The notes under the pieces: generated by a model
The model's input: the letters and a program-made list of their open reading frames with translations, nothing else
What the model was told of the DNA's origin: nothing
Databases searched by the model: none
Shown here: positions 11,275 to 23,832 of the stretch, one piece after another
Layout: each line of letters begins with the position of its first letter
Position numbering within the stretch: position 1 is the stretch's first letter
Position numbers and translations under genes: made by a program
Origin: an uncultured Alphaproteobacteria bacterium
GTDB lineage: Bacteria > Pseudomonadota > Alphaproteobacteria > HIMB59 > GCA-002718135
NCBI GenBank assembly: GCA_902594815.1
Contig: CACJNL010000001.1
Location: 6,188-70,187 of the forward strand
Length of the DNA stretch: 64,000 nt
Reading direction: 5' to 3'

Positions 11275-12241
11275 CTAAAACTTCTCTTTTCTTTTGTTCG
11301 TCTAGAAATGAATATTCGATAGCATTTCTTGTCATCGATATAAGAGCATCATCAGTAAAACCTATATTACTCATTGCTTCATACTCTCCTTGTATTGTAG
11401 CATTGAAGAAGGGAGGGTCATCAGAGTTGACTGTCACTTTAGCACCCAACTCGTGTAATTTTTTTACTGGATGATTTTCATAATTTTCATAAATTTTGGT
11501 GGCAATATTACTGGTAGGACATGTTTCTAAGACAATATCTTTCTCAATAATTTCTTTTACCAATTCTAAGTCTTCAATTGACCTTACACCGTGACCCAAT
11601 CGTGTAGGATGCAATAAATTAATAGCTTTACGAATATTCTCTGGACCATCCCATTCACCTGCATGAACGGTAATGGGAAAATTTTCTTCTTTTAGCATAT
11701 CAAAGGTTTTTGAAAATAAGTGTGGGGGGAAATGCAATTCATCTCCTGCCAATCCAAAACCCACAAGTGTGGGGTGGGGATTTTTTAGAACTTCTTCAGC
11801 TGTGCCCTGAACCGATGCAGGTCCTAAATGTCTAATGCCATTCATTAAGTAACGTGACACAATTCCAAAGTCCCTCTCTGCGTTTAGTGAAGCTTCTTGA
11901 ATACTATCCAGAAAAGATTGGTAGGTCATTCCCTTAGCTTTTGCATGCGTTGAAGAAACCATTGCTTCTACATAAAGCACTTTATGAGAAGCGCATTCTT
12001 TTAAATATTCATATGTTAATTCATAATAATCTTCTGGTGTATGAATGACAGAAGTTACGATGTCATATTTTTTTAAAAAATCATAAAAATCTTCCCACTG
12101 ATACGCATACTCAGAGCCAAAAAAATCATCTGAGAGGATCACTTTATTGCGCTTGGCAAATTTTCTACATAAAGATGGTGTTATTGTTGCCTCAAGATGG
12201 ACATGAATTTCTGCTTTTGGTATATGAGATATTGAGTTCAT
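11261..12241 (-). CDS. add: adenosine deaminase
   Basis: Motifs KAEIHVHLEATI, HAGE and SDDPPFF. The preferred start is ATG 12241 (MNSISHIPKAE...). The longer track start at 12274 would overlap the divergent gene. Confidence 0.85.
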   Translation of the reverse strand: MNSISHIPKAEIHVHLEATITPSLCRKFAKRNKVILSDDFFGSEYAYQWEDFYDFLKKYDIVTSVIHTPEDYYELTYEYLKECASHKVLYVEAMVSSTHAKAKGMTYQSFLDSIQEASLNAERDFGIVSRYLMNGIRHLGPASVQGTAEEVLKNPHPTLVGFGLAGDELHFPPHLFSKTFDMLKEENFPITVHAGEWDGPENIRKAINLLHPTRLGHGVRSIEDLELVKEIIEKDIVLETCPTSNIATKIYENYENHPVKKLHELGAKVTVNSDDPPFFNATIQGEYEAMSNIGFTDDALISMTRNAIEYSFLDEQKKREVLAKLN

Positions 12242-12267
12242 GAAATTTATTTTATATTTATAGATTA

Positions 12268-13089
12268 ATGTCAATTTTTAATAACATATCAAGGAGAAAG
12301 TTTATTTATGGATCGACTTGTTTTTGTGCATCAAGCTTAATTTTACCATCCTGTACTGAGGTTGCGTTATCAGAACGACAACAGTTTAATATTTTATCAG
12401 ATGATTTTTTGTATTCAAAAACTTTTCCTGCATACAATAATTTCAAATCGCAGTCTAAACTGATCACTGGGACATCAGAATATAATGAAATAGTTGATAT
12501 TGGTTTTAGAATCCGCGATGCCATTAATGTGTATTACAATACAAAGGGACAAGAAGATCCAACATCTAATTTTCAGTGGGAATTTATTCTTGTTGATGAT
12601 GATCAAACCAAAAATGCTTGGTGTATGCCAGGTGGCAAAATTGCATTTTATTCTGGAATTCTTCCCATAGCTAAAAATGAAGATGGTATTGCATCCATCA
12701 TGGGACATGAAATAGCCCACGCAGTAGCAAGACACTCCGCAGAAAGAGCTAGTACGGCAATGCTAACTGATTTTGGAATAATGGCTTTAGAAAAATTTGT
12801 TTTAGGGCAACGACTGCCGCAGGCATCTGGATATGTTCGACAATTTGGTCTTGATTTGCCTTTTAATAGAAAACAAGAATCCGAAGCAGATTATTTAGGA
12901 ATAATTTTTTCAAGCTTAGCAGGTTATAATATTGAAGAGTCTTATAAAGTTTGGGAGCGAATGAAAGAAGAGACAGGTTCTGGTCCCACAGAATTTTGGA
13001 GTACCCATCCATCACCAGATAATAGAATTAAAAAATTAAAGGAATGGATACCGATTGTATCAAGACAGTATCCTGCTATAAGTGTTTAA
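12268..13089 (+). CDS. M48-family zinc metallopeptidase, lipoprotein
   Basis: Lipobox (LILPSC), HEIAHAVARH zinc motif and a downstream E(S)EADY motif. Confidence 0.8.
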   Translation: MSIFNNISRRKFIYGSTCFCASSLILPSCTEVALSERQQFNILSDDFLYSKTFPAYNNFKSQSKLITGTSEYNEIVDIGFRIRDAINVYYNTKGQEDPTSNFQWEFILVDDDQTKNAWCMPGGKIAFYSGILPIAKNEDGIASIMGHEIAHAVARHSAERASTAMLTDFGIMALEKFVLGQRLPQASGYVRQFGLDLPFNRKQESEADYLGIIFSSLAGYNIEESYKVWERMKEETGSGPTEFWSTHPSPDNRIKKLKEWIPIVSRQYPAISV

Positions 13090-14135
13090 TGCTAGCTGTT
13101 AGTATAAAAAACCTTAGTCACAAAATTAATAATAAACCTATTTTAAATAATGTTAATTTTGAATTAAAAAAAGATTCTATTGCGTGCATTCTTGGACCTT
13201 CCGGTAGTGGTAAAACAACATTATTAAAATTAATAGCAGGTTTAGATAAAGTCCAAAGTGGTAAAATCTTTATAAATGAACAAGAAGTAAGTTCTGCTAA
13301 TAAACATCTCGCAACTGAGAAAAGAAAAATTGGTTATCTGTTTCAGGACTACGCGCTCTTTCCTCACTTAACAGTCAAAGAAAATCTTAAATATCCTATT
13401 AATTTTAAAAACTCTATTTATACGATTAATGATATTATTGATGTTATTAAATTACCAAATTCTCTTGATAAGTATCCACATGAATTAAGTGGTGGAGAAC
13501 AACAACGAGTTGCTTTAGCAAGATCTATAATTTCTCATCCAGATTTATTATTATTAGACGAACCATTTTCTAGTCTTGATTTGAATTTAAGAGAGGAAAT
13601 ACGTGATGATACACTTCACTTACTCCAAAAATCTAATGTATCAACAATAATAGTTACGCATGATCCTTTTGAAGCAATGTTTATTTCAAATCAAATAAAT
13701 ATCATGGATGATAATGGTAGTATTATTCAATCTGGTTCTCCAGCAGATTTATACAATACTCCTAAGAATGAATATGTTACAAGATTTTTTGGAGAGACAA
13801 ATGTTTTTCATGGTAACGCAATTGACTCTATAGTTGCTACTCCTGTTGGCAACGTAAGAGTAGATCCTAAGTATAAGAACAAAAATGTTACAGTTCACAT
13901 AAGACCTCAAGGAATAAAATTAAGTGAACAACCAACGCCTGTTAACGGAATCAAGGGCACAGTTATGGCTTCAAAATTAATGGGTTCATTTAGTTTTATT
14001 CATTTATCAGTTTTAAATAATAAAAATGAAGTGGTGCATGTTCATAGCCACATGCCTCCTGAATTTAACCCTAAACAATCTTCTGCTGTAGAAATTGCAG
14101 TGGATGAAAAACATACTTTCGTTTTTGAAAGTTAA
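13089..14135 (+). CDS. fbpC: ABC transporter ATP-binding protein, Fe(3+)/polyamine (FbpC/PotA) type
   Basis: Start taken at ATG 13089, a TAATG overlap with the M48 stop. Walker A GPSGSGKTT, signature LSGGEQQRV, Walker B LLLLDEP, and a C-terminal TOBE-like domain. The 3' end overlaps the fbpB 3' end by 4 nt on the opposite strand. Confidence 0.75.
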   Translation: MLAVSIKNLSHKINNKPILNNVNFELKKDSIACILGPSGSGKTTLLKLIAGLDKVQSGKIFINEQEVSSANKHLATEKRKIGYLFQDYALFPHLTVKENLKYPINFKNSIYTINDIIDVIKLPNSLDKYPHELSGGEQQRVALARSIISHPDLLLLDEPFSSLDLNLREEIRDDTLHLLQKSNVSTIIVTHDPFEAMFISNQINIMDDNGSIIQSGSPADLYNTPKNEYVTRFFGETNVFHGNAIDSIVATPVGNVRVDPKYKNKNVTVHIRPQGIKLSEQPTPVNGIKGTVMASKLMGSFSFIHLSVLNNKNEVVHVHSHMPPEFNPKQSSAVEIAVDEKHTFVFES

Positions 14136-15739
14136 ATACTTTCTTTTCTCTGTGATACTCTTTGCAATGCAGAGTTTAAAAATATAATTGGACCTAACCC
14201 AACTACAACAATAATAAGAGCAGCAAAAGAAGACTCTTGTAAAAGTTCATCTGAAGCATACTGATAGACATAAGTTGCCAAAGTTTCAAAGTTGAAAGGA
14301 CGCAATAAAAGTGTGATGGGAAGTTCTTTTAATATATCAACAAAAACCAATATTCCCCCAATTAATATATTAGAAAATATCAAGGGCATAATTACAACTT
14401 TAACTCCTTTATAAAAACCAGCTCCCATAGTCAAAGAAGCATCCATAGCATTTGGATGAATTTTTAAAATTCCTGATCTAATAGATGCATTTCCTACAGC
14501 CAAAAATCTTACTATGTAAGCAAATATCAAAACAATAAAACCTCCTGCAACATAACTTAGATGAAGATGAAGGTATTTATTAATCCATCCTAGGAAAATC
14601 ACCATTCCTACTGCTAATATTGTTCCTGGCAGGGCATATCCACAAGACGCAAGAAAAATTAGGGATTTTTGAAAATTATTTGATTTATATTGAGAGATTA
14701 TAATTAAAAATATTGAAGCCAGCATAACAAAAAAAGCACCTGTAAGAGCCAAAGTAATACTAAAAAAAGAAGTGTAGAATATTTGTGTGAAATCAATAAT
14801 CGAAAAACCACTAAAAATAAAATTTAATAACACAGATACAGGAATAACAAATCCTATAACTATAGGTATTATACAAACAAAAAAACAAATTATTTTCTTA
14901 ACATTCGATGTAGTTTTAGCCTCTATCATATTTTGACCACTACTTTTTTCATGAAATCTTTGATTTCTTCTAGCAAGATATTCTATAGTTATTAAGACAA
15001 CTACAAATATAAATAAAACAGATGAAATTTGTGAAGCTCCTGACAAACTATTCATGCCAAGCCACACGTTAAAAACACCTAAAGTTAATGTTTCAAGCGC
15101 AAAATATTCAACAGTACCAAAATCAGATACAGTTTCCATTAACACAAGAGCCAAACCAGCTATGATACCAGGTCGGGCAAGTGGTAAAGCAACACTAAAA
15201 AAACTACTTCTTCCATATATTAAGCTTGTTTGAAAAAAAGATATAGGCACGGTTAGAAATGATGCTCTGGTAGTCATATAAATATATGGATATAAAACAA
15301 ATGACATTACAAATATTGCTCCTTCCATAGATCTTATTTCAGGAAACCAATATTCTTCTGCATTTTTAAAATTAAAAAACTCTCTTATAATTTTTTGAAC
15401 CGGTCCTGCATACTCTAAAAAATCTGTATAGGTGTATGCAATTATGTAGGCTGGAACTGCTGCTGGTAATAATAAAGCCCATTCAAAAAAATTCTTCCCA
15501 AAAAAATTATACCTGGTAACAACCCATGCGGTAGATATACCTAAAAAAGAGCTTAACAAACCAACACCTATCATTAATATAATTGTATTTGAAATATATC
15601 TTGGCAATACAGTCGAGAATAAATGAGGCCACAATGAAGTGTCACCTAAAAAAGCAGAATAAAAAATTGCAAATACTGGCGCAATAATAATTAATGCAAC
15701 TAAAGTAGCAAATAAAGATGAATTATTCCAATTTAACAA
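14132..15739 (-). CDS. fbpB: iron(III) ABC transporter permease (two fused permease domains)
   Basis: 535 aa, about 12 TM helices, duplicated binding-protein-dependent permease domain. Follows fbpA. Confidence 0.8.
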   Translation of the reverse strand: MLNWNNSSLFATLVALIIIAPVFAIFYSAFLGDTSLWPHLFSTVLPRYISNTIILMIGVGLLSSFLGISTAWVVTRYNFFGKNFFEWALLLPAAVPAYIIAYTYTDFLEYAGPVQKIIREFFNFKNAEEYWFPEIRSMEGAIFVMSFVLYPYIYMTTRASFLTVPISFFQTSLIYGRSSFFSVALPLARPGIIAGLALVLMETVSDFGTVEYFALETLTLGVFNVWLGMNSLSGASQISSVLFIFVVVLITIEYLARRNQRFHEKSSGQNMIEAKTTSNVKKIICFFVCIIPIVIGFVIPVSVLLNFIFSGFSIIDFTQIFYTSFFSITLALTGAFFVMLASIFLIIISQYKSNNFQKSLIFLASCGYALPGTILAVGMVIFLGWINKYLHLHLSYVAGGFIVLIFAYIVRFLAVGNASIRSGILKIHPNAMDASLTMGAGFYKGVKVVIMPLIFSNILIGGILVFVDILKELPITLLLRPFNFETLATYVYQYASDELLQESSFAALIIVVVGLGPIIFLNSALQRVSQRKESI

Positions 15740-15757
15740 AACAGTTGATGTTATAGA

Positions 15758-16777
15758 TTACCATCCAACTCTATCAATTATTTTTTGAGCTTCAGGAGCA
15801 AGTTCAGCAATTTTTATAATTGGTAATTTATCTTCCCTGAAGTTTCCCCAGGAACTAAGCTCTTTACTTGGATTTACGATGGGATTAACAGGATACTCAA
15901 AATTTATTTCACCATATAATTGTTGAGATTCTTTTGTAGTTAAAAATTCTAACAACATTATTGCTTCTTTTTTGTTTTTTGAGTGTAGGGCAACACCTCC
16001 ACCCGATATGTTAATATGTGCCCCGCGGTCACCTTCTTTTTGATTTGGAAAAATCAGCTTTACTTTTTCAGCCCATTTTCTTTGCTCAGGATCTTCAGAA
16101 AATTTTAATTTTCCATAATAATAATTATTAATAATTGCTATATTGCATTCACCTTCATAAATTGACTTAATTTGCGCTCTGTCATTTCCTTGAGGTCTTC
16201 GCGCAAAATTATTTACAAGACCTTTTGCCCAAGCTTCCGCGTTTGCTTCTCCGTATTCCGCTAAAACAGATGCCATGATCCCTCTATTATAAACATGACT
16301 TCCAGGCCTTGAACAAATTTGGCCTTTCCATTTCGAGTCGGCTAAGTCTTCTAATCTAGTTATTTCACCATCCTTAATTTTTTCTTTATTTACCGCAATA
16401 ACCCTTGCTCTTTTAGAGAGAGCAAACCAATTGTTTTCAGGGCTTCTTAAATGTGATGGGACATTTTCTATTAATTTTTTTGACTCTATAGAGGCTAAAA
16501 GATTCAAATCTGAGTAAATATATAATCTTCCTATATCGACAGTTAAAATAACGTCAGCTGGACTGTTTTCTCCTTCTGATTGTAATCTTTGTGCAAGACC
16601 TTTTTTTGAATAGATAACGTTTGTTTTAATTCCAGTTTCATTCGTAAACAATTCTAAAAAAGGGTTAATTAAGAAAGGTTGTCTATGCGAATATATATTA
16701 ATTTCTTTAGCAAAAAGATTTAGTGAAAAACATGTAATAAAGATTATTGATAAAATATTAATAGTATTTTTTTTCAT
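15758..16777 (-). CDS. fbpA: Fe(3+) ABC transporter periplasmic binding protein
   Basis: 339 aa with a signal peptide. FbpA/SfuA-like sequence and size. Confidence 0.8.
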   Translation of the reverse strand: MKKNTINILSIIFITCFSLNLFAKEINIYSHRQPFLINPFLELFTNETGIKTNVIYSKKGLAQRLQSEGENSPADVILTVDIGRLYIYSDLNLLASIESKKLIENVPSHLRSPENNWFALSKRARVIAVNKEKIKDGEITRLEDLADSKWKGQICSRPGSHVYNRGIMASVLAEYGEANAEAWAKGLVNNFARRPQGNDRAQIKSIYEGECNIAIINNYYYGKLKFSEDPEQRKWAEKVKLIFPNQKEGDRGAHINISGGGVALHSKNKKEAIMLLEFLTTKESQQLYGEINFEYPVNPIVNPSKELSSWGNFREDKLPIIKIAELAPEAQKIIDRVGW

Positions 16778-17777
16778 TAGAATAACTCCTCTTAAAAAGA
16801 TTAAAATAAAATTTTTTTCGTAGCAAATTTAAATTTTTAATAAAATAATTCTTTATTTCAAAAAAAGGATTTAAATATAGTGTTTTTAAATCATGACTTT
16901 CGTCTTTTTGATTTTTTTCAATTCCAAGATTGAGTGTTTCAAAATCAACAGAATGATGTAATGAACCAAAAAGCCAATCCCAAATTGCTAATGCAGCGCC
17001 AAAATTTTTATCATGATGTTCCTTAGCTATAGAGTGATGCAGTTGATGTTGGGCTGGTGAAATAAAAATATATTCTACCCACTTCCAATATTGAATACCT
17101 ATATGAGAATGCCGTAAGTTTGAACCCAATACATTAAATATAAATACAAAAATATTTACTCCCAATATTGTAAACAAGCTAACTGTATTTCCAAATAAAA
17201 AAATAAATGTTGAAATACTAATAGCTTGTGTAACTGAACTTCTTAAAGAAAAAATAATTCCTTCTAACGGATGTGTTCTAAACACTGTCATTGGGGTAAG
17301 AACGGTTGCTGAATGATGGACTTTATGCAGTGACCAAAGAATTGGCCAACGATGCATAAATCTATGAATGAAATACTTACTAAAATCATCAATGGTAAAT
17401 TGAAAAGTCGTAAAAGAAATTACCACAATAATAGGTAAAGTATTTGAAAACATTCCAACACTAAGCCAATCTATTGAGTGAAAATAAAAGTATAAGGCTG
17501 TGGCTATTGTTAAGTGTGTTATCAATATTGGTGAAACTATCATCATTATTAATTGATTGATGAAAAAAACTTTATAATCTGATTTTGCTGATTTAGAAAA
17601 AAATATATTCCAATTAAAAATTTTTTTTAAAGCGGTTTTTAAGGTAAATTTTTTATTTAAGATAAACCAACCTAAGGCAATGAATATTGATATAACAATA
17701 TATGCAATAAAAACTCTTTTTTTTGGATCAATAAATTGACTACCAATTTTAAAAAAATAGTCTGACAGAATATCCAT
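16758..17777 (-). CDS. fatty-acid hydroxylase / sterol desaturase superfamily membrane di-iron oxygenase
   Basis: 339 aa, polytopic, with three His boxes (HRFMHR, HKVHHS, HQLHHS plus HHDKNFG). The 3' end overlaps the fbpA start by 20 nt. Confidence 0.8.
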   Translation of the reverse strand: MDILSDYFFKIGSQFIDPKKRVFIAYIVISIFIALGWFILNKKFTLKTALKKIFNWNIFFSKSAKSDYKVFFINQLIMMIVSPILITHLTIATALYFYFHSIDWLSVGMFSNTLPIIVVISFTTFQFTIDDFSKYFIHRFMHRWPILWSLHKVHHSATVLTPMTVFRTHPLEGIIFSLRSSVTQAISISTFIFLFGNTVSLFTILGVNIFVFIFNVLGSNLRHSHIGIQYWKWVEYIFISPAQHQLHHSIAKEHHDKNFGAALAIWDWLFGSLHHSVDFETLNLGIEKNQKDESHDLKTLYLNPFFEIKNYFIKNLNLLRKKFYFNLFKRSYSNEKKYY

Positions 17778-17788
17778 ATAACTTCATA

Positions 17789-17813
17789 GTGTGGCTTTTT
17801 TAAAAAGCCACAC
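17789..17813 (-). other. intercistronic perfect palindrome/hairpin GTGTGGCTTTTT(T)AAAAAGCCACAC
   Basis: Read directly. 12-bp arms (7 GC-rich plus 5 A/T) in the 47-nt gap between the 458-aa gene and the hydroxylase gene. No U-tract follows on the minus strand. Confidence 0.4.
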
Positions 17814-17824
17814 AAAATTTAATA

Positions 17825-19201
17825 TTAGTCATTTTCTGCAGAGTCTGAACTGCCTAGTGAGCTAGCAAGATCTTCCATCGCAGATAGTTGATCATTAGCT
17901 TTAGCAGTGACGCCAAATTCATCGATCATAAGTTTTTGAATTTTAAGCATATGTAACTTAAACTCACCCCATTCCTGAGCTTGATCTTTGATGAAATTAC
18001 CATTTGAATCAACTCCAACAACTTGTGAAGCATTTAGTAGAACTGGTCCAAAGCCCATCATTCTATTCATTTTAACAGCTGCTTCTCCTAGATTTTCTGG
18101 TCCACACTGAAGTGCTAAAGCAAAGCCTTTAAGCTCTCCCCAATGTTTTGCATATTTTCTAAACGTATCAGTCGTATCACCATTTGCTTCGACGATTGTT
18201 TCAAGCGCTACTATATCTTTGTAGGTTGAACCTGCATACTTAAATACAGACTCAGCAATTACTTTTTGCCAATTATCTCTAATAGTATCTCTTGCTGCTA
18301 ACATAGCAGTTCTTTCATCAAAGTTAAGGTTACGACCACCAGCATCTCTAATAACTTCTCTTCCATCTATAAATGCTTGATTAACTGTAGCAAGGTAGTT
18401 TGTCTTTCCACCTTTGTCATAACTTGATGCGTAGTAAGCATGAGCATATAACATCTCAGAATACAAATCTACAACACCATCTCCATTATAATCTGCTGAA
18501 GATAAATCTTTCATCTTGGCAACGTTATAGTTTTCTTCAGCTGATAATGTTAAAGAATGTGCTGGCGCACCCCAATATCCAAAAGCTTCATCCCAACTAT
18601 GTTCTTTACCAGTATAATAAGATCCTTCTTTGTAAGGTTTATTATTTGGTTTTTCCCCAACTTTCATTTTTTTTCCAAGATAGTTATTTACTGCTTGGTT
18701 GTAGAACACAGCACCCATTGCAAATTTAGAAATCAATTGTGTGTAATCAAATCCAGTATTTGGATCAAAACCACCCTCAACTTCACTAGCTTTTTGCATC
18801 ATGTGTTCAATAGCTTCAGGACCGGTTAGTCCTCCCCAGCCAGGAATTGCGCCTTTATACATTTTGCCAGACAAGTTACCACTACCTATTTCAGCAACCA
18901 TGGTTTGCATAACAGGGAAACCATCCTTAGATTTTGGGGCAATGATTTCTAGACCATCTTCACCATTGTAATAAGCCATCATTTTATCGAGATCACCTGT
19001 TTTAACAAGTTTTTTCAAACTATCATGCAGAACTTGTCTCGCCATTTGACCAGTATATTTTACAGAATTTGTCTTATCGCCATCATAACCTTTAAGTGTA
19101 ATTGGATAAGGTCCATATATTTGATGACCATCAGCCAATAATGATTTTGAAAAACTAATTGCTATTATTATTGAAGCAACAATTGTAATTATTTTTTTCA
19201 T
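17825..19201 (-). CDS. secreted protein of unknown function (first gene of the iron operon)
   Basis: 458 aa with a clean signal peptide (…FSKSLLA/DGHQ) and SD GAGGAG 6 nt upstream. The EHSWDEAFGYWGAP segment only faintly recalls the imelysin/EfeO-type H..E..LWG motif (also considered: DUF4856). No confident family call. Confidence 0.8.
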   Translation of the reverse strand: MKKIITIVASIIIAISFSKSLLADGHQIYGPYPITLKGYDGDKTNSVKYTGQMARQVLHDSLKKLVKTGDLDKMMAYYNGEDGLEIIAPKSKDGFPVMQTMVAEIGSGNLSGKMYKGAIPGWGGLTGPEAIEHMMQKASEVEGGFDPNTGFDYTQLISKFAMGAVFYNQAVNNYLGKKMKVGEKPNNKPYKEGSYYTGKEHSWDEAFGYWGAPAHSLTLSAEENYNVAKMKDLSSADYNGDGVVDLYSEMLYAHAYYASSYDKGGKTNYLATVNQAFIDGREVIRDAGGRNLNFDERTAMLAARDTIRDNWQKVIAESVFKYAGSTYKDIVALETIVEANGDTTDTFRKYAKHWGELKGFALALQCGPENLGEAAVKMNRMMGFGPVLLNASQVVGVDSNGNFIKDQAQEWGEFKLHMLKIQKLMIDEFGVTAKANDQLSAMEDLASSLGSSDSAEND

Positions 19202-19227
19202 AAACTCCTCGTAATAAATTTTTAATT

Positions 19228-19273
19228 GCGGGAGCAGAATAACGGAATTGCTGATCTTGTTTATTGCTCCCGC
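19228..19273 (-). promoter_or_regulatory. GC-rich stem-loop in the 5' leader of the iron operon
   Basis: Perfect 9-bp stem GCGGGAGCA/TGCTCCCGC enclosing 28 nt. It ends 17 nt upstream of the SD, in an otherwise AT-rich leader. Confidence 0.4.
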
Positions 19274-19370
19274 GTCCTCTTATTGAGAATCTAACAACTT
19301 TTTTATTTATAAAATTTCAAAGTTTAATTATAAAAAAATTCCCTAGGTATTTTCTAAAGAATTTAATATT

Positions 19371-19388
19371 TTTAGAATTATTCTAATT
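19371..19388. promoter_or_regulatory. ICE (Irr) / Fur-family type operator, copy 1: TTTAGAATTATTCTAATT
   Basis: 7-1-7 palindrome TTAGAAT-T-ATTCTAA. It fits the Irr iron control element TTTAGAA-N3-TTCTAAA at 13/14 positions. An extra half-site (TTCTAAA, 19352-19358) overlaps a possible -35 for TATAAT (minus strand, 19332-19327). Identical to copy 2. Confidence 0.6.
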
Positions 19389-19393
19389 AAATA

Positions 19394-19762
19394 TTAATTA
19401 GAAAAATACTTCTTTTGATCTAAATACCATTTAGTCAGCATCAATGAATAGTTTTCAGACAAGCAATAAGACTTTGATCTTCTATCTTTTTTTGATGATT
19501 TTTTAATGAAAAAACCTTTGCTAACAGCATAATTAAGTGTCGAGTAAATTGTAGATCTACAGCCGAGCTTTGACGGTATTTTTTTACATAACATCTCATA
19601 TGACATACATTGATTATTGAAAGTTGAAGAAGCAATTTCAAGACTAATCAAACGTGTAAGTGCGGATGAATAAAAAAAGTTATAACAGGGATCTATATCT
19701 TTTTTAGTATAAAAATCTTTTTTTACTAAGTCTACAACGTTTTCTAAACCTAACATAGTCAA
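19394..19762 (-). CDS. small winged-helix (MarR-like) transcriptional regulator, Cys-rich
   Basis: 122 aa from TTG 19762, or 120 aa from ATG 19756. wHTH pattern ...MSYEMLCKKIPSKLGCRSTIYSTLNYAVSKGFFIKKSSKKDRRSKSYCLSE... Five cysteines. Flanked on both sides by the 18-nt box. Confidence 0.6.
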   Translation of the reverse strand: MTMLGLENVVDLVKKDFYTKKDIDPCYNFFYSSALTRLISLEIASSTFNNQCMSYEMLCKKIPSKLGCRSTIYSTLNYAVSKGFFIKKSSKKDRRSKSYCLSENYSLMLTKWYLDQKKYFSN

Positions 19763-19771
19763 ATATTTTTA

Positions 19772-19815
19772 GGAGTGAAAGATTGCGCTGGTACCTGCAA
19801 CAACCTTTCAACCCC
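19772..19815 (-). promoter_or_regulatory. long imperfect hairpin in the 5' leader of the regulator gene (candidate cis-regulatory RNA)
   Basis: Minus-strand RNA GGGGUUGAAAGGUUG-(15 nt loop containing GGUACC)-CAAUCUUUCACUCC. It forms 14 pairs with one bulge. The two non-Watson-Crick positions are G-U on the minus strand but A-C on the plus strand. A 22-codon uORF (19827..19759) spans it. Confidence 0.45.
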
Positions 19816-19912
19816 AAGTAGAAACATACGGTTTTTTTTTATGGATTTTAATTTAAGAGTACAGTTTAATTTTTATATTAGGGATATATATTGAAAACTC
19901 ATCATTATTAAA

Positions 19913-19930
19913 TTTAGAATTATTCTAATT
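19913..19930. promoter_or_regulatory. ICE (Irr) / Fur-family type operator, copy 2: TTTAGAATTATTCTAATT
   Basis: Exact 18-nt repeat of 19371-19388. About 150 nt upstream of the regulator start and abutting the hupE stop codon. Followed by another TTTAGAA half-site (19929-19935). Confidence 0.6.
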
Positions 19931-20532
19931 TAGAATAAAAAAGATATACCAAATAGAGCGCATCCAGCTCCAGCAACTTTTAAAACAATTGATGAAAATT
20001 TAGTCTTAATAGCTAAACTCCCTATTCCCACACCAAAAAGATGTAATATTGCTGTTCCTGATGCAAAGCCAAGTGCAAATAAAATTGGGTTAACTGCCCA
20101 TGGCATCTCCATGCCGTGCGCTAATCCATGACACATCCCAAAAATACAAATGAAAATCATTATAATATTAGTGGCAATTTTTTTTTCTATCGCAATTGCT
20201 AAGCCTAATAATATGACAGAAAAGACTATACCGTATTCAACAACTATAAAGGCAGATTCTTCTAAATCAAAAAAGAAAACCTCAATCAACATGCCAATGG
20301 TACCGCCGATAATCATCATTAAGACAAAGGTTGCAGGAATGGTCCAAATTGCTCTTCCTCCAATTTGGGCACTTACAATACCAACACTAACCATTGCTAA
20401 AAAATGATCTATCCCTAATACTGGATGAGAAAGACCATCATAAAAACCTACCATCCCTGTAAAAGTATGTGCATGGGCTCCAGAGGTATAAAAAACTAGA
20501 GATAAAAACAGTAAAATTAAATTAGCTTTCAT
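19930..20532 (-). CDS. hupE: HupE/UreJ-family metal (Ni/Co-type) transporter
   Basis: 200 aa. Signal peptide ending GAHA/HTFTG, then the GFYDGLSHPVLGIDHFLAMV signature and about 6 TM helices. Confidence 0.85.
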   Translation of the reverse strand: MKANLILLFLSLVFYTSGAHAHTFTGMVGFYDGLSHPVLGIDHFLAMVSVGIVSAQIGGRAIWTIPATFVLMMIIGGTIGMLIEVFFFDLEESAFIVVEYGIVFSVILLGLAIAIEKKIATNIIMIFICIFGMCHGLAHGMEMPWAVNPILFALGFASGTAILHLFGVGIGSLAIKTKFSSIVLKVAGAGCALFGISFLF

Positions 20533-21230
20533 GCAAATCCTTTCTGTTTTCTTGAAAATAATTTTTTAATAATAAAATAAATTAGAAATATTATAACTAC
20601 TAAAGCTATATGCGGAATATAAGCACGAATATCAAATTTTTGCCAATGCAATATATCCATAGCAGGCCCAATATATAAAAGGATAGGAGCCCATGTTAAA
20701 GTTTGCTCCCACAAATTAGATCCAAAAAATTCAGCTTCTCCTACTGCAAGAGAATAATGTCCTGAATTATTTTCATTAAAAATTTGAATTAAATAAGAAC
20801 CTGCATTCAAATTAAAACTTCTCTTAAAACCAGTATCTTCATTAACTTCGGCTCCTATTTCCGGTCCTTTCCAATACCAATCTCTAGCATACGGTTCATA
20901 CCAGGCTTCCCATTCAAAATTTTGGCCATCTGCAAAAAATTTTAAAATTTTATTATTTTTTTCATTAATTGAATATACAGCAATCGATAACCATAAATGG
21001 TCATCATCAACTTTAGGACTTAAAATTCCAGTATAAAATAAAAATTCTTCTTCACTATTAATTAAATAATAGTGTGGTTCACCGTTAAGCTTGCCATAAT
21101 ATGCTTTAGATATCTCTGGGTCTATAACTTCATGAGGATTATCAACAGAAGGTGAGTAATTAATTAACTTTGGCTGATGGGCAAATAAATTAGAACTAAA
21201 TAATAAGAAAATAATTACAATTAATTTCAT
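20529..21230 (-). CDS. secreted, C-terminally membrane-anchored protein of unknown function (predicted mature N-terminal His)
   Basis: 233 aa. Signal peptide …SSNLFA/HQPKL, a soluble domain of about 165 aa, then two C-terminal hydrophobic helices. 4-nt overlap with hupE. Confidence 0.75.
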   Translation of the reverse strand: MKLIVIIFLLFSSNLFAHQPKLINYSPSVDNPHEVIDPEISKAYYGKLNGEPHYYLINSEEEFLFYTGILSPKVDDDHLWLSIAVYSINEKNNKILKFFADGQNFEWEAWYEPYARDWYWKGPEIGAEVNEDTGFKRSFNLNAGSYLIQIFNENNSGHYSLAVGEAEFFGSNLWEQTLTWAPILLYIGPAMDILHWQKFDIRAYIPHIALVVIIFLIYFIIKKLFSRKQKGFA

Positions 21231-21236
21231 TAATTA

Positions 21237-21265
21237 ATTATAGTTTAGCTTTTATCATTTTCCAA
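21237..21265 (-). promoter_or_regulatory. candidate sigma-70 promoter TTGGAA-N17-TATAAT for the 233-aa/hupE operon (possibly leaderless)
   Basis: Read on the minus strand: -35 at 21265-21260 and -10 at 21242-21237. The -10 ends 6 nt before the ATG at 21230, so the transcript would start at or next to the start codon. Confidence 0.35.
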
Positions 21266-21269
21266 TAAA

Positions 21270-21296
21270 ATAAAAATGGGGCCACATTGGGCCCCT
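21270..21296 (-). terminator. rho-independent terminator of hsp20
   Basis: Minus strand: GGGGCC-CAATGT-GGCCCC followed by ATTTTTATTTTATT, about 35 nt after the hsp20 stop. Confidence 0.75.
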
Positions 21297-21329
21297 ATCC
21301 TTATTAAATATATTTATAATACTTATAAA

Positions 21330-21767
21330 TTATTTAATATCTATTAACCGAGCCTTTTTCTCCTCGGGGATTATGCGCTCTAAATCAATATTTAAAAGAC
21401 CATTCAACAATTCAGCATTCTTCACTTTAATGTCCTCAGATATAGTAAAAGATCTCTCAAACTGTCTGGTTGAAATTCCTTTGTGAATAACACCATTACC
21501 TTCTTCATTCACTACTTTTTCTTTTTGTTTATTGCGAACTGTAAGTGTGTTTTCTTTAAGCTCTAATTCTATATCATCTCTAGAATATCCAGCTAAAGCA
21601 ACTTCAATTTTATAATCATTCTCATTTACTCTTCGAATGTTATAAGGTGGATAGTTTGAATTATAGCGCTCTGTAGACTCCAACATTCTATCAAATTCTT
21701 CGAAGATTGAGTCAAACCCAACTGAAAAGGGTCTAAGCGAATTCCATACGGATAGGTTTCTTGTCAT
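21330..21767 (-). CDS. small heat-shock protein, Hsp20/alpha-crystallin family (IbpA-like)
   Basis: 145 aa with an alpha-crystallin domain (YKIEVALAGYSRDDIELELKENTLTV…GISTRQFERSF). Confidence 0.9.
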   Translation of the reverse strand: MTRNLSVWNSLRPFSVGFDSIFEEFDRMLESTERYNSNYPPYNIRRVNENDYKIEVALAGYSRDDIELELKENTLTVRNKQKEKVVNEEGNGVIHKGISTRQFERSFTISEDIKVKNAELLNGLLNIDLERIIPEEKKARLIDIK

Positions 21768-21825
21768 AAAAACTCCTTATTAAGCAAGTTATGTATTGGC
21801 ACCCACAATGGCATACCAACTATAC
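21768..21825 (-). ncRNA. ROSE-like RNA thermometer candidate (two-hairpin 5' UTR of hsp20)
   Basis: The leader is UAGUUGGUAUGCCAUUGUGGGUGCCAAUACAUAACUUGCUUAAUAAGGAGUUUUUAUG. Hairpin I is UUGGUAU..GUGCCAA. Hairpin II pairs CUU-G-CUU with AAGGAG. That gives the UUGCU anti-SD, a bulged G and a G-U pair opposite the SD, the ROSE hallmarks. Confidence 0.45.
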
Positions 21826-21860
21826 TAACATGGGAATGCTTAAAAAATATTCAAGTGGGA
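21826..21860 (-). promoter_or_regulatory. sigma-32 (RpoH) type heat-shock promoter of hsp20
   Basis: Minus strand: TCCCACTTGAA-N15-CCCATGTTA, against the consensus CCCTTGAA-N13-17-CCCCATNT. Confidence 0.55.
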
Positions 21861-21862
21861 AT

Positions 21863-22519
21863 TTATTTTTTTCGAATAAATGACAGACCATCAGATAGCG
21901 GAATTAAGGAAAATTCTACTCTTTTATCCTCTTTAATTTTTTGATTAAGGTCACGTATAGCTTGGGTGCGTGAGTCTAATATAGAAATATCTGCTACATC
22001 ACCGTGCCAAAGCATATTATCAATAATAATTATTCCATTAGAAGAAAGTAAACTTAAAGCTAACTCATAATAGTTTGGATAATTGTTTTTATCAGCATCA
22101 ATAAAGATAATATCAAAAACATATTGTCGGTCTATAAAGCTTTGCATCACCTCAGTGCCATCACCTATAATTGATTTTATTTTTGATGCTTGATCATCTT
22201 GATCCCAGTATTTTTCCGCAATAGGTAAAAATTCATCTGACGTATCGACAGTTACTATTTTACCGTCTTTGGGGAGTCCTCGAGCCATATATAAAGTGCT
22301 TAATCCTGTAAACCGTCCAATCTCTAAGCAAGATTTTGCATTTGAAATCTTTACAATAATTTCTAAAAATTGACCTTGTTCTTTCGCAATTTGCATGCGT
22401 GCAACTTTTCCAAGTTTCTTTGTCTCACTTGCAAGTTCATCAACAAGAGTATCTTTTCTATAACCAAGTTCTTGTAGATACTTTTTTAAATCTTGATTAA
22501 TTTCTACTTGTTCACTCAT
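21863..22519 (-). CDS. class I SAM-dependent O-methyltransferase (caffeoyl-CoA OMT/YrrM-like)
   Basis: 218 aa with CLEIGRFTGLSTL (motif I) and FIDADKNNY, typical of Methyltransf_3. Last gene of the operon. Confidence 0.8.
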   Translation of the reverse strand: MSEQVEINQDLKKYLQELGYRKDTLVDELASETKKLGKVARMQIAKEQGQFLEIIVKISNAKSCLEIGRFTGLSTLYMARGLPKDGKIVTVDTSDEFLPIAEKYWDQDDQASKIKSIIGDGTEVMQSFIDRQYVFDIIFIDADKNNYPNYYELALSLLSSNGIIIIDNMLWHGDVADISILDSRTQAIRDLNQKIKEDKRVEFSLIPLSDGLSFIRKK

Positions 22520-23832
22520 TATGAAATTACTTCATAAATATCTGAATGATTTGCAACCTCATCATCACCAATTAAAAAATACTCTTCTATTTTTTTTTCA
22601 ACATTTTCAAAATCTTTATCCGAATGACAGTACAATGTTAGTAAGGGGGTAGAGCCATCAACCTTATCTCCAACGCTTAACACATTATCGTAACCCACAT
22701 TAAAATTAATTTTATCTGTAACCTGTTTTCTGCCGCCACCAAGTTCAATAAGTACCAAACCTAGATCTCTTGTTTTTATTTTTTGGACATATCCCGACTG
22801 CTGAATATAAATATCTTTTTTGAATGCATCTATTTGCAACTCAGTATTATATGAAGACAAGATATTTGATGTGCCCCCTAAGGCTGCCACCATTTTTTCA
22901 AATTTTTCAGCAGCTTCTCCATTTGATATGACAGTATCTATTTTTTTTAGAGCCTCTTCCTTTGAGATATTTTGTGCCATCATTAAAATTGAAGCGACTA
23001 ATTCATAGGTGATGTTATGGAGTCTCGGGTCTTTCTCTTGATTTGTCAAAAAGTTAATGCATTCTAAAATTTCTAACCTATGACCTGCCGTCTTACCTAA
23101 TACTTGATTCATATCTGTGATAATGGCCTCACATTTTAATCCTGCACCCTTTGCAACACGAACAAGAGAATTCGATAAGTCTCTTGCAATTTCTATAGTG
23201 CTATTAAAAGAACCATTACCAACTTTCACATCTAGGACTAATGTTTTTAATCCTGATGCTATTTTTTTTGATAGGATGGATGAAGTAATGAGAGGTAAAG
23301 ATTCAACTGTTCCAACAATATCTCTAATTGAGTAAAGTTTTTTATCCGCTGGCGCCAGGTTATCTGTTTGTCCAATAATCGCACACCCAACTTCTTTCAA
23401 AACTTTCTTAAATGTTTCTAGATCCGGTTGCGTATTATAACCAGGGATAGAGTCGAATTTATCTAGAGTGCCACCTGTGTGACCAAGTCCCCTTCCAGAA
23501 ATCATTGGAACATACAAACCACAGGCTGCTAAAATAGGCGCTAAGATTATACTTGTTTTATCTCCCACACCACCTGTTGAGTGTTTATCACAAACTAATT
23601 CCTCATCTAAAATACTTGACCAATCAATAGTGTCTCCAGAAACTGTCATAGCTTCAGTTAAATTGACAGTCTCCTCAGGTGTCATGCCATTTGAAAAAAT
23701 GGCCATACTCATTGCAGCAATTTGAGGATCCGAAAATGAACCGTCCGTTAACCCTTTTGCAAAAAGGAATATTTCTTCTTTTGTAAGAGCTTTTTTATCT
23801 CTTTTTTTTCTAATTATTTCCTGAGGAATCAT
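22519..23832 (-). CDS. deoA: thymidine/pyrimidine-nucleoside phosphorylase
   Basis: 437 aa with KHSTGGVGDKTS, SGRGLGHTGGTLDK and a C-terminal PYNP domain. Confidence 0.9.
   Translation of the reverse strand: MIPQEIIRKKRDKKALTKEEIFLFAKGLTDGSFSDPQIAAMSMAIFSNGMTPEETVNLTEAMTVSGDTIDWSSILDEELVCDKHSTGGVGDKTSIILAPILAACGLYVPMISGRGLGHTGGTLDKFDSIPGYNTQPDLETFKKVLKEVGCAIIGQTDNLAPADKKLYSIRDIVGTVESLPLITSSILSKKIASGLKTLVLDVKVGNGSFNSTIEIARDLSNSLVRVAKGAGLKCEAIITDMNQVLGKTAGHRLEILECINFLTNQEKDPRLHNITYELVASILMMAQNISKEEALKKIDTVISNGEAAEKFEKMVAALGGTSNILSSYNTELQIDAFKKDIYIQQSGYVQKIKTRDLGLVLIELGGGRKQVTDKINFNVGYDNVLSVGDKVDGSTPLLTLYCHSDKDFENVEKKIEEYFLIGDDEVANHSDIYEVIS

Follow-up and report, generated by a model that had tools for sequence, protein, structure and literature searches.

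Two identical palindromes beside a ferric-iron uptake operon

We analysed a 64,000-nucleotide stretch of the genome of an uncultured alphaproteobacterium (GenBank contig CACJNL010000001.1, positions 6,188 to 70,187; GC content about 33%), referred to below as the window, and focused on two copies of one short palindrome, boxes 1 and 2, that bracket the gene of a small MarR-like regulator and precede an operon for ferric-iron uptake. Transcription of the locus runs on the minus strand in the order hsp20, a gene for a 233-aa protein, hupE/ureJ, box 2, the regulator gene, box 1, and the four operon genes for DUF4856, a hydroxylase-like protein, an FbpA/FutA-type protein, and a permease. The boxes and the genes around them are as follows:

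19371-19388 (core 19372-19386), no strand: box 1, a palindrome of the iron control element (ICE) type, exact match
19913-19930 (core 19914-19928), no strand: box 2, an identical ICE-type palindrome, exact match
19394-19756, minus strand: gene of a 120-aa MarR-like winged-helix protein (68 homologous clusters, AlphaFold, PDB matches)
14132-19201, minus strand: iron uptake operon 3' of box 1 (Pfam, PDB sequence search), comprising the next four genes
17825-19201, minus strand: DUF4856 (Pfam)
16758-17777, minus strand: fatty-acid-hydroxylase-like membrane protein (Pfam)
15758-16777, minus strand: FbpA/FutA-type Fe3+-binding protein (PDB search, 6g7n at 8e-84 and FbpA 1q35 at 2e-80)
14132-15739, minus strand: permease (Pfam)
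19930-20532, minus strand: hupE/ureJ-family gene, 5' of box 2 (Pfam HupE_UreJ, 1.8e-43)
20529-21230, minus strand: 233-aa protein
21330-21767, minus strand: hsp20

The sequence TTTAGAATTATTCTAATT occurs exactly at both box positions, and each copy contains the 7-1-7 inverted repeat TTAGAAT-T-ATTCTAA, as an earlier note on this DNA, made from the letters alone, had described. Box 1 lies 5 nt past the regulator stop codon and 170-187 nt 5' of the DUF4856 start codon, and box 2 abuts the hupE stop codon, 157-174 nt 5' of the regulator ATG. The earlier placement of box 1 in a 192-nt gap before the first operon gene (start 19201), and of box 2 in contact with the hupE stop codon, proved correct on checking. 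The name of iron operon, also given there, is justified by the match of its binding protein to FbpA/FutA structures (E = 8e-84).

The box pair is the sole exact repeat of at least 18 nt within the window. Since first-order Markov simulations gave a mean of 0.3 such repeats per window, the exact repeat by itself is only mildly unusual and constitutes weak evidence. The 15-nt core, allowing up to one mismatch, was found twice versus 0.11 expected, and none of 100 shuffles gave two matches. Both boxes are intergenic, and the weaker ICE-like matches in a scan of the window fall inside open reading frames (ORFs), except for one site at 21313-21329 that is described at the end. We also considered whether the boxes are remnants of a larger duplication of the two regulatory regions and rejected this explanation: no similarity extends past the box, and the global alignment score of 92 (versus 69 ± 9 for shuffled sequences) is due mostly to the box itself.

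The boxes match the ICE consensus

The ICE consensus recognized by Irr in Bradyrhizobium japonicum and other alphaproteobacteria is the palindrome TTTRGAAYNRTTCYAAA, or TTTAGAA-N3-TTCTAAA (Rudolph et al., 2006; Rodionov et al., 2006, PMC1698941). The boxes of the window match it at 16 of 17 positions, and boxes in related contigs match at 16 or 17. Natural variants of the box fall on the degenerate Y8 and R10 positions (TTAGAACTATTCTAA in L010, TTAGAATTGTTCTAA in L009, and TTAGAATAGTTCTAA in L059, where related loci are cited by number), with the exception of the box 2 variant in L004, which lies outside these positions. The unit that is conserved here differs from the published element in that it is the 15-nt core, with the outer T and A of the 17-mer being variable. 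The classical Fur box (TGATAAT-N-ATTATCA) has the same 7-1-7 architecture and shares five of seven bases with each half-site of our box, differing at two positions per half-site; our box is closer to the ICE consensus than to this one.

The boxes are under strong purifying selection

Both boxes are found at the same offsets, about -174 and +368 from the regulator ATG, in all eight related genome loci. When 11 distinct loci were compared with positions locked, the core of box 1 proved 100% identical, against approximately 49% identity in the spacers on either side. The boxes are real cis-elements under strong purifying selection. Two of the related loci (L007 and L008) are without hupE and keep box 2 directly after the hsp20 terminator, showing that hupE is not required for box 2; the central base of box 2 is flipped in these loci, which produces a 17/17 match to the ICE consensus.

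Of the 13 related DUF4856/regulator loci examined, 10 have the regulator gene bracketed by boxes as it is in the window, and the box is constant across regulators of 56-92% identity. Single-cell genomes bearing the labels 'uncultured Alphaproteobacteria' and 'Pelagibacterales bacterium SAG-MED31' hold relatives of the regulator, and one DUF4856 homologue comes from 'MarineAlpha5_Bin11'. We regard the bacterium as a marine alphaproteobacterium resembling SAR11, possibly of the HIMB59/AEGEAN-169 type.

The boxes persist where the regulator gene is lost

The gene order of the iron operon in loci L009 to L013 is that of the window. The regulator in L009 is 57% identical to that of the window, and a Cons_hypoth698 gene has been inserted between it and box 1; box 1 remains with the iron operon, 203 nt 5' of DUF4856. 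Two further loci, L010 and L011, which are separate assemblies of one population, carry a natural deletion variant (L010:4122-5000 and L011:3170-3923) that lacks the bulk of the regulator gene together with the 5' portion of the Cons_hypoth698 (YeiH-like) gene. About 18 N-terminal regulator codons are left (counted by eye), fused to the 3' end of the Cons_hypoth698 gene, and a tblastn search of both loci for the regulator gave no match (E > 0.9). Box 1 is nonetheless perfect, box 2 carries one change that the consensus allows, and the operon leader is intact. The site is therefore not restricted to loci with the regulator: the boxes are kept without the gene in L010 and L011, and the core recurs in L059 and L137, which are described below.

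Other loci bear on the same question. The regulator of L013 is 56% identical and has a changed recognition helix, and both boxes are perfect. A distant family member (P0190, in L014) has a box with one mismatch 114 nt upstream, and a family member in a sugar-metabolism context (L015 and L016) has no box. In L012, which encodes a DUF4856 protein of a 468-aa type, we found no box, no regulator, and no leader; this shows that the module of box, regulator, and leader is lineage-specific, and the locus is neutral between hypotheses. The region upstream of its DUF4856 gene (L012:4240-4390) contains a 70-aa ORF and GTAC-rich palindromes, GGTACTTAATTAATTAGTAC among them, pointing to another design of regulation. 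Taken together, the evidence from L009 to L016 indicates that the box goes with the iron locus rather than with the regulator gene.

Box 1 appears to lie upstream of the operon promoter

The operon promoter was located by a promoter scan and by comparison among related loci:

19327-19332, minus strand: TATAAT, probably the -10 element of the operon promoter (promoter scan; position-conserved in 12 loci)

In these 12 loci, a T run is followed by a hexamer of the TA..(A/T)T type (TATAAT, TAAGAT, or TATATT) 54-60 nt after the start of the core. The hexamer lies 40 nt downstream of the box 1 core, within a spacer that otherwise diverges. The distance from the start of the core to the leader motif TTCTCAATAAGAG is likewise held at 97-98 nt in 13 loci despite the diverged spacer. 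No conserved -35 element was seen between box 1 and the leader in the 12 loci. The earlier note had read TATAAT (19332-19327) as a -10 element, which stands as likely, and had placed an additional half-site over a plausible -35; the half-sites TTCTAAA (19352-19358) and TTTAGAA (19929-19935) are present in the window and are not conserved in relatives.

With this hexamer as the -10 element, the center of box 1 would be at about -60 from the inferred transcription start. A box near -60 would give a layout typical of activator-dependent promoters, and it would fit the published rule that an ICE upstream of a promoter confers positive control and an ICE over a promoter confers repression (PMC1698941). 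Such a placement ahead of the promoter would point to box 1 as a site from which Irr activates transcription when iron is low. The non-conservation of the extra half-sites and the position-locked comparison, which puts the box upstream of the promoter, argue against a repressor layout at box 1. For box 2 the layout is ambiguous: a conserved TACTCT/TACTAT hexamer at index 66-72 would set the box near -72, or the position-conserved TTTAAT/TATAAT immediately following the box could be the -10 element.

The same core is found beside irr

Irr is the haem- and iron-responsive member of the Fur family in alphaproteobacteria. We looked for further instances of the box with an exact scan of metagenome contigs for TTTAGAAYNRTTCTAAA, which yielded at least 120 stretches. 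Among the matches listed, 116 of 122 sites lie outside ORFs of at least 100 aa, a bias that is partly built in because the motif has stop codons in two of three frames per strand. The genes flanking perfect ICEs include, among the matches listed, at least three for MbfA-like rubrerythrin-VIT1 proteins, at least three of the Fur family, at least two for TonB receptors, and at least two for DUF4856, as well as genes for a SufS-like enzyme, glutamyl-tRNA reductase (HemA), and an Sdh/Frd flavoprotein.

The most informative arrangement is in L059 and L137 (GC content 0.33; 1.44-Mb marine contig), where fabI-fabB-fabA, all on one strand, are followed in order by a Cys-free Fur-family gene, an SDR gene, three boxes, and a rubrerythrin gene. 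The boxes are in tandem with 32-nt spacing (L059:1868-1946 and L137:7272-7350) and have the same core as those of the window. The last of them ends 41 nt 5' of the rubrerythrin ATG, and they overlap a TTGACT -35-like element. Against NCBIfam models, the Fur-family protein scores 136 bits for Irr (with a curated cut-off of 170), 62 for PerR, and 38 for Fur. Linkage to fabA is typical of irr, and a fabA-linked Irr is present in AT-rich marine contigs of a GC content like that of the window. A contig with a GC content of 0.64 has an ICE flanked by irr and rubrerythrin. Boxes were absent from related irr loci that lack rubrerythrin. Rubrerythrin is a documented class of Irr target in alphaproteobacteria (PMC1698941).

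No regulator-family cluster was found on contigs of at least 1 Mb, and for this reason the L137 genome apparently uses the box without the MarR-like protein.

Two metagenome contigs of Bacteroidota-like character (L101 and L130; GC content 0.32-0.35) carry the 7-1-7 motif before genes for DUF4856 lipoproteins, pointing to iron regulation of DUF4856 beyond a single phylum.

The regulator is a MarR-like protein of a narrow family

The earlier description of a small winged-helix regulator is sustained in its fold, which is MarR-like, and amended in its length: rather than 122 aa, the protein is likely to have 120 aa and start at the second ATG (19756), as in the 68 homologous clusters. The family is narrow, with 68 clusters at 56% identity or more, mostly of 120 aa, and 167 representatives by profile search. 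Against Pfam, the protein gives only a sub-threshold match to HTH_36, reaching no MarR model, and against NCBIfam nothing was found. The AlphaFold model is confident and has MarR topology (predicted local distance difference test score of 85.7), and its best PDB matches are PefR, MarR, HpaR, and ZitR, with modest scores. The closest structural match, a weak one, is the haem-sensing MarR protein PefR (E = 4e-4, template modelling score of about 0.55-0.63). The protein had also been called Cys-rich, which is true of close relatives only; C57 and C66 are invariant in these and replaced in more distant family members. In the predicted recognition helix, the N-terminal part R-S-T/S-I is conserved across the family. 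An unchanged operator is thus compatible with the local regulator as its reader, and because these key residues are conserved, covariation between recognition helix and box is uninformative.

Irr is the most probable reader of the boxes

We consider it probable, at roughly 65% and judging from sequence comparisons, that the boxes are ICEs, with Irr as their most likely reader, over both the ferric-iron uptake operon and the MarR-like regulator gene. Of the two readings that the earlier note had set in competition, this corresponds to iron control of both transcription units by Irr or a Fur-family protein, and it is supported by the 16/17 match to the ICE consensus, the ferric-binding protein of the operon, and the occurrence of the same core beside irr. 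Candidatus Pelagibacter ubique (P. ubique) likewise encodes Irr, along with Fur (PMC2864753). The arrangement resembles known Irr systems in its palindrome, in its placement upstream of iron genes as in the positive-control class of ICEs, in the ICEs predicted before the fbp operons of Agrobacterium and Sinorhizobium (PMC1698941), and in the ICEs over the rubrerythrin promoter in related contigs. It differs from them in its host, an AT-rich SAR11-like marine lineage, and in its predicted targets, which include DUF4856, the hydroxylase-like gene, and a MarR-like regulator without a described family.

At low iron, Irr would be active and bind box 1, where it would activate DUF4856, the hydroxylase-like gene, fbpA, and fbpB, as it does at the upstream ICEs of Bradyrhizobium iron-transport genes. 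Box 2 would bring the MarR-like gene into the same Irr regulon, and we predict that this gene is controlled through box 2 as a target rather than being the reader of the boxes. When iron and haem are replete, Irr would be inactivated and both units would drop to basal expression. The structured leaders 3' of both promoters, described below, may add a post-transcriptional layer.

Several observations weigh against this interpretation. Within the box lies TAGAAT, which would make a good -10 hexamer and is compatible with a repressor layout, and a position-conserved TTTAAT/TATAAT directly after box 2 is a possible -10 element of the regulator gene. No Fur-family gene was found in the window or in L001 to L016, by Pfam search of 10 small ORFs in the window and tblastn with Escherichia coli Fur and an approximate B. 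japonicum Irr. The Irr loci described above share no genes with the window, members of the regulator and Irr clusters occur in no shared assembly, and further look-ups of Irr gave only metagenome contigs from ENA, JGI, and Logan. The same 7-1-7 motif stands before iron genes in Bacteroidota-like contigs, where Irr is unexpected, and the motif alone therefore cannot separate Irr from Fur. For P. ubique, Rodionov et al. (PMC1698941) predict Fur, not Irr, before the fbp operon, leaving a minimal Irr regulon of rubrerythrin only. Finally, the deletion in L010 and L011 may have happened so recently that the boxes have had no time to decay, or that genome may hold a regulator copy elsewhere.

The second reading of the earlier note took the boxes for operators of the local regulator itself, in a self-contained cassette. 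The 120-aa MarR-like protein would then regulate itself through box 2 and the operon through box 1, and the likeness to ICEs would be coincidental or convergent. MarR-family dimers often recognize short palindromes within the promoters of their own genes, and here a protein of this fold, like PefR, MarR, and ZitR, has a palindrome in its upstream region; the bracketing of the regulator gene in most loci, the one-mismatch box upstream of P0190, and the conserved part of the recognition helix are all in keeping with such an arrangement. Unlike a MarR-family operator, however, the palindrome outlives the loss of the regulator in L010 and L011, stays with the operon and not the regulator in L009, and recurs in triplicate before rubrerythrin near irr on a 1.44-Mb contig that apparently has no member of the regulator family. 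It is also unchanged across regulators of 56-92% identity and missing from family members in a sugar-metabolism context, and a coincidental match of 16-17 out of 17 positions to the ICE consensus, with variants confined to degenerate positions except in box 2 of L004, would be surprising. We therefore disfavor local operators and regard them as unlikely. A combined arrangement, in which the palindrome is read by both Irr and the MarR-like protein, in competition or cooperation, and the latter tunes the Irr response, would account for the co-occurrence of regulator and boxes in most loci and for the position of the regulator gene inside the presumed Irr regulon, and the weak resemblance to haem-sensing PefR would suit it. 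Because the deletion variant keeps its boxes and the structural match reflects the general MarR fold, we judge this to be very improbable.

It is also conceivable, if improbable, that the boxes are Fur boxes, occupied by Fe2+-Fur when iron is high so that both units are repressed, with the TAGAAT of the box serving as the -10 element; iron uptake genes classically have this layout. Relief of Fur repression is the simplest account of how an uptake operon is induced at low iron, and the boxes have the 7-1-7 repeat of Fur-superfamily-style recognition, much of the Fur half-site, and a place before a ferric uptake operon. A Fur-alpha site is the published prediction for the P. ubique fbp operon (Rodionov et al., 2006), and Fur would be the expected reader where the motif precedes TonB-receptor and DUF4856 genes in Bacteroidota-like contigs. 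On the other side are the better fit to the ICE consensus, the presence of the same core before rubrerythrin, an Irr target class, beside irr, and the layout of the promoter: no usable -35 element was found upstream of the TAGAAT in the box, and the conserved -10-like hexamer would set the box near -60, not over -10 and -35 elements, which is a poor position for repression.

Should Irr indeed read the boxes, a ferric uptake operon with DUF4856 and hydroxylase-like partners would be wired to haem-linked Irr in at least one abundant AT-rich marine lineage, a MarR-like regulator without a described family would belong to the same regulon, and DUF4856 would be connected with iron acquisition across more than one phylum. 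In much of the ocean, bacterial growth is limited by iron, and the regulation of iron uptake in streamlined SAR11-like bacteria is known mainly from one transcriptome/proteome study and one comparative-genomics prediction; the box would provide a concrete cis-element for reading iron-stress markers in metatranscriptomes. The ICE reading would also correct the idea of a self-contained regulatory cassette.

Both transcripts carry structured leaders

Downstream of each promoter is a conserved structured region:

19202-19293, minus strand: iron operon 5' leader with two hairpins (covariation, folding energy)
19763-19820, minus strand: conserved hairpin leader 5' of the regulator ATG (near-invariant in the window and L001 to L008)

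The operon leader consists of the near-invariant AGATTCTCAATAAGAGRAC, which forms hairpin P1 (5 bp), followed by hairpin P2 (8-9 bp) and the Shine-Dalgarno sequence. Four pairs of P2 show compensatory changes across 11 loci, and the minimum free energy (MFE) of the leader is -21.9 kcal/mol (z = -3.0). The CUCC of its 3' arm is complementary to the downstream Shine-Dalgarno GGAG. The hairpin of the regulator leader has an MFE of -22.3 kcal/mol (z = -3.3). An Rfam search of positions 12000-23000 assigned no family to either leader.

A lineage-specific loop motif is common to both leaders: loci of the L009 type have GTCACAGCYAAATC, and those of the window type have CCAGC..AAT. L009 has an analogous regulator hairpin (L009:3243-3283), and GTCACAGCYAAATC in its loop recurs in the loop of the L009 operon leader; the two loops, GTCACAGCCAAATC and GTCACAGCTAAATC, are nearly equal, which hints at a shared trans-acting partner. 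One may imagine a two-layer iron module, in which promoters under Irr-ICE control drive two leader-bearing transcripts that contain an undescribed iron- or haem-responsive RNA element or are bound by a common RNA-binding factor, perhaps the MarR-like protein (or in which the MarR-like protein competes with Irr); we consider such a module unlikely.

Neighboring genes and other sites

Two further sites in the window resembled regulatory boxes and were rejected. The ICE-like sequence TTTATAATACTTATAAA (21313-21329) has two mismatches to the ICE pattern and three to the 15-nt core, and it sits past the hsp20 stop codon and ahead of the terminator hairpin of this gene; the gene after hsp20 has its own TTGGAA-17-TATAAT promoter downstream of that terminator; the site is probably non-functional. 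The Fur-box-like sequence TTTATAATCATTCTCATT (21609-21626) is part of the hsp20 coding sequence and is conserved because it encodes the residues NENDYK, and its resemblance to a Fur box is probably due to chance.

The 233-aa secreted or membrane protein (20529-21230) belongs to no family and is translationally coupled to hupE. These two genes, whose promoter is the TTGGAA-17-TATAAT just mentioned, are conserved together in L001 to L006 and L009 to L011. Directly 5' of hsp20 there is a weak match to the ROSE_3 RNA thermometer (21762-21820, minus strand; 24.4 bits, against a gathering score of 43).

At the other end of the locus, the ABC ATPase gene of the ferric transporter (13044-14135, plus strand) is convergent with the permease gene (14132-15739, minus strand), with a 4-nt overlap, and being on the opposite strand, it falls outside the box-controlled operon. 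A relative of L009 also has the ATPase gene on the opposite strand downstream of the operon, with a flavodoxin-like gene between the ATPase and the permease.

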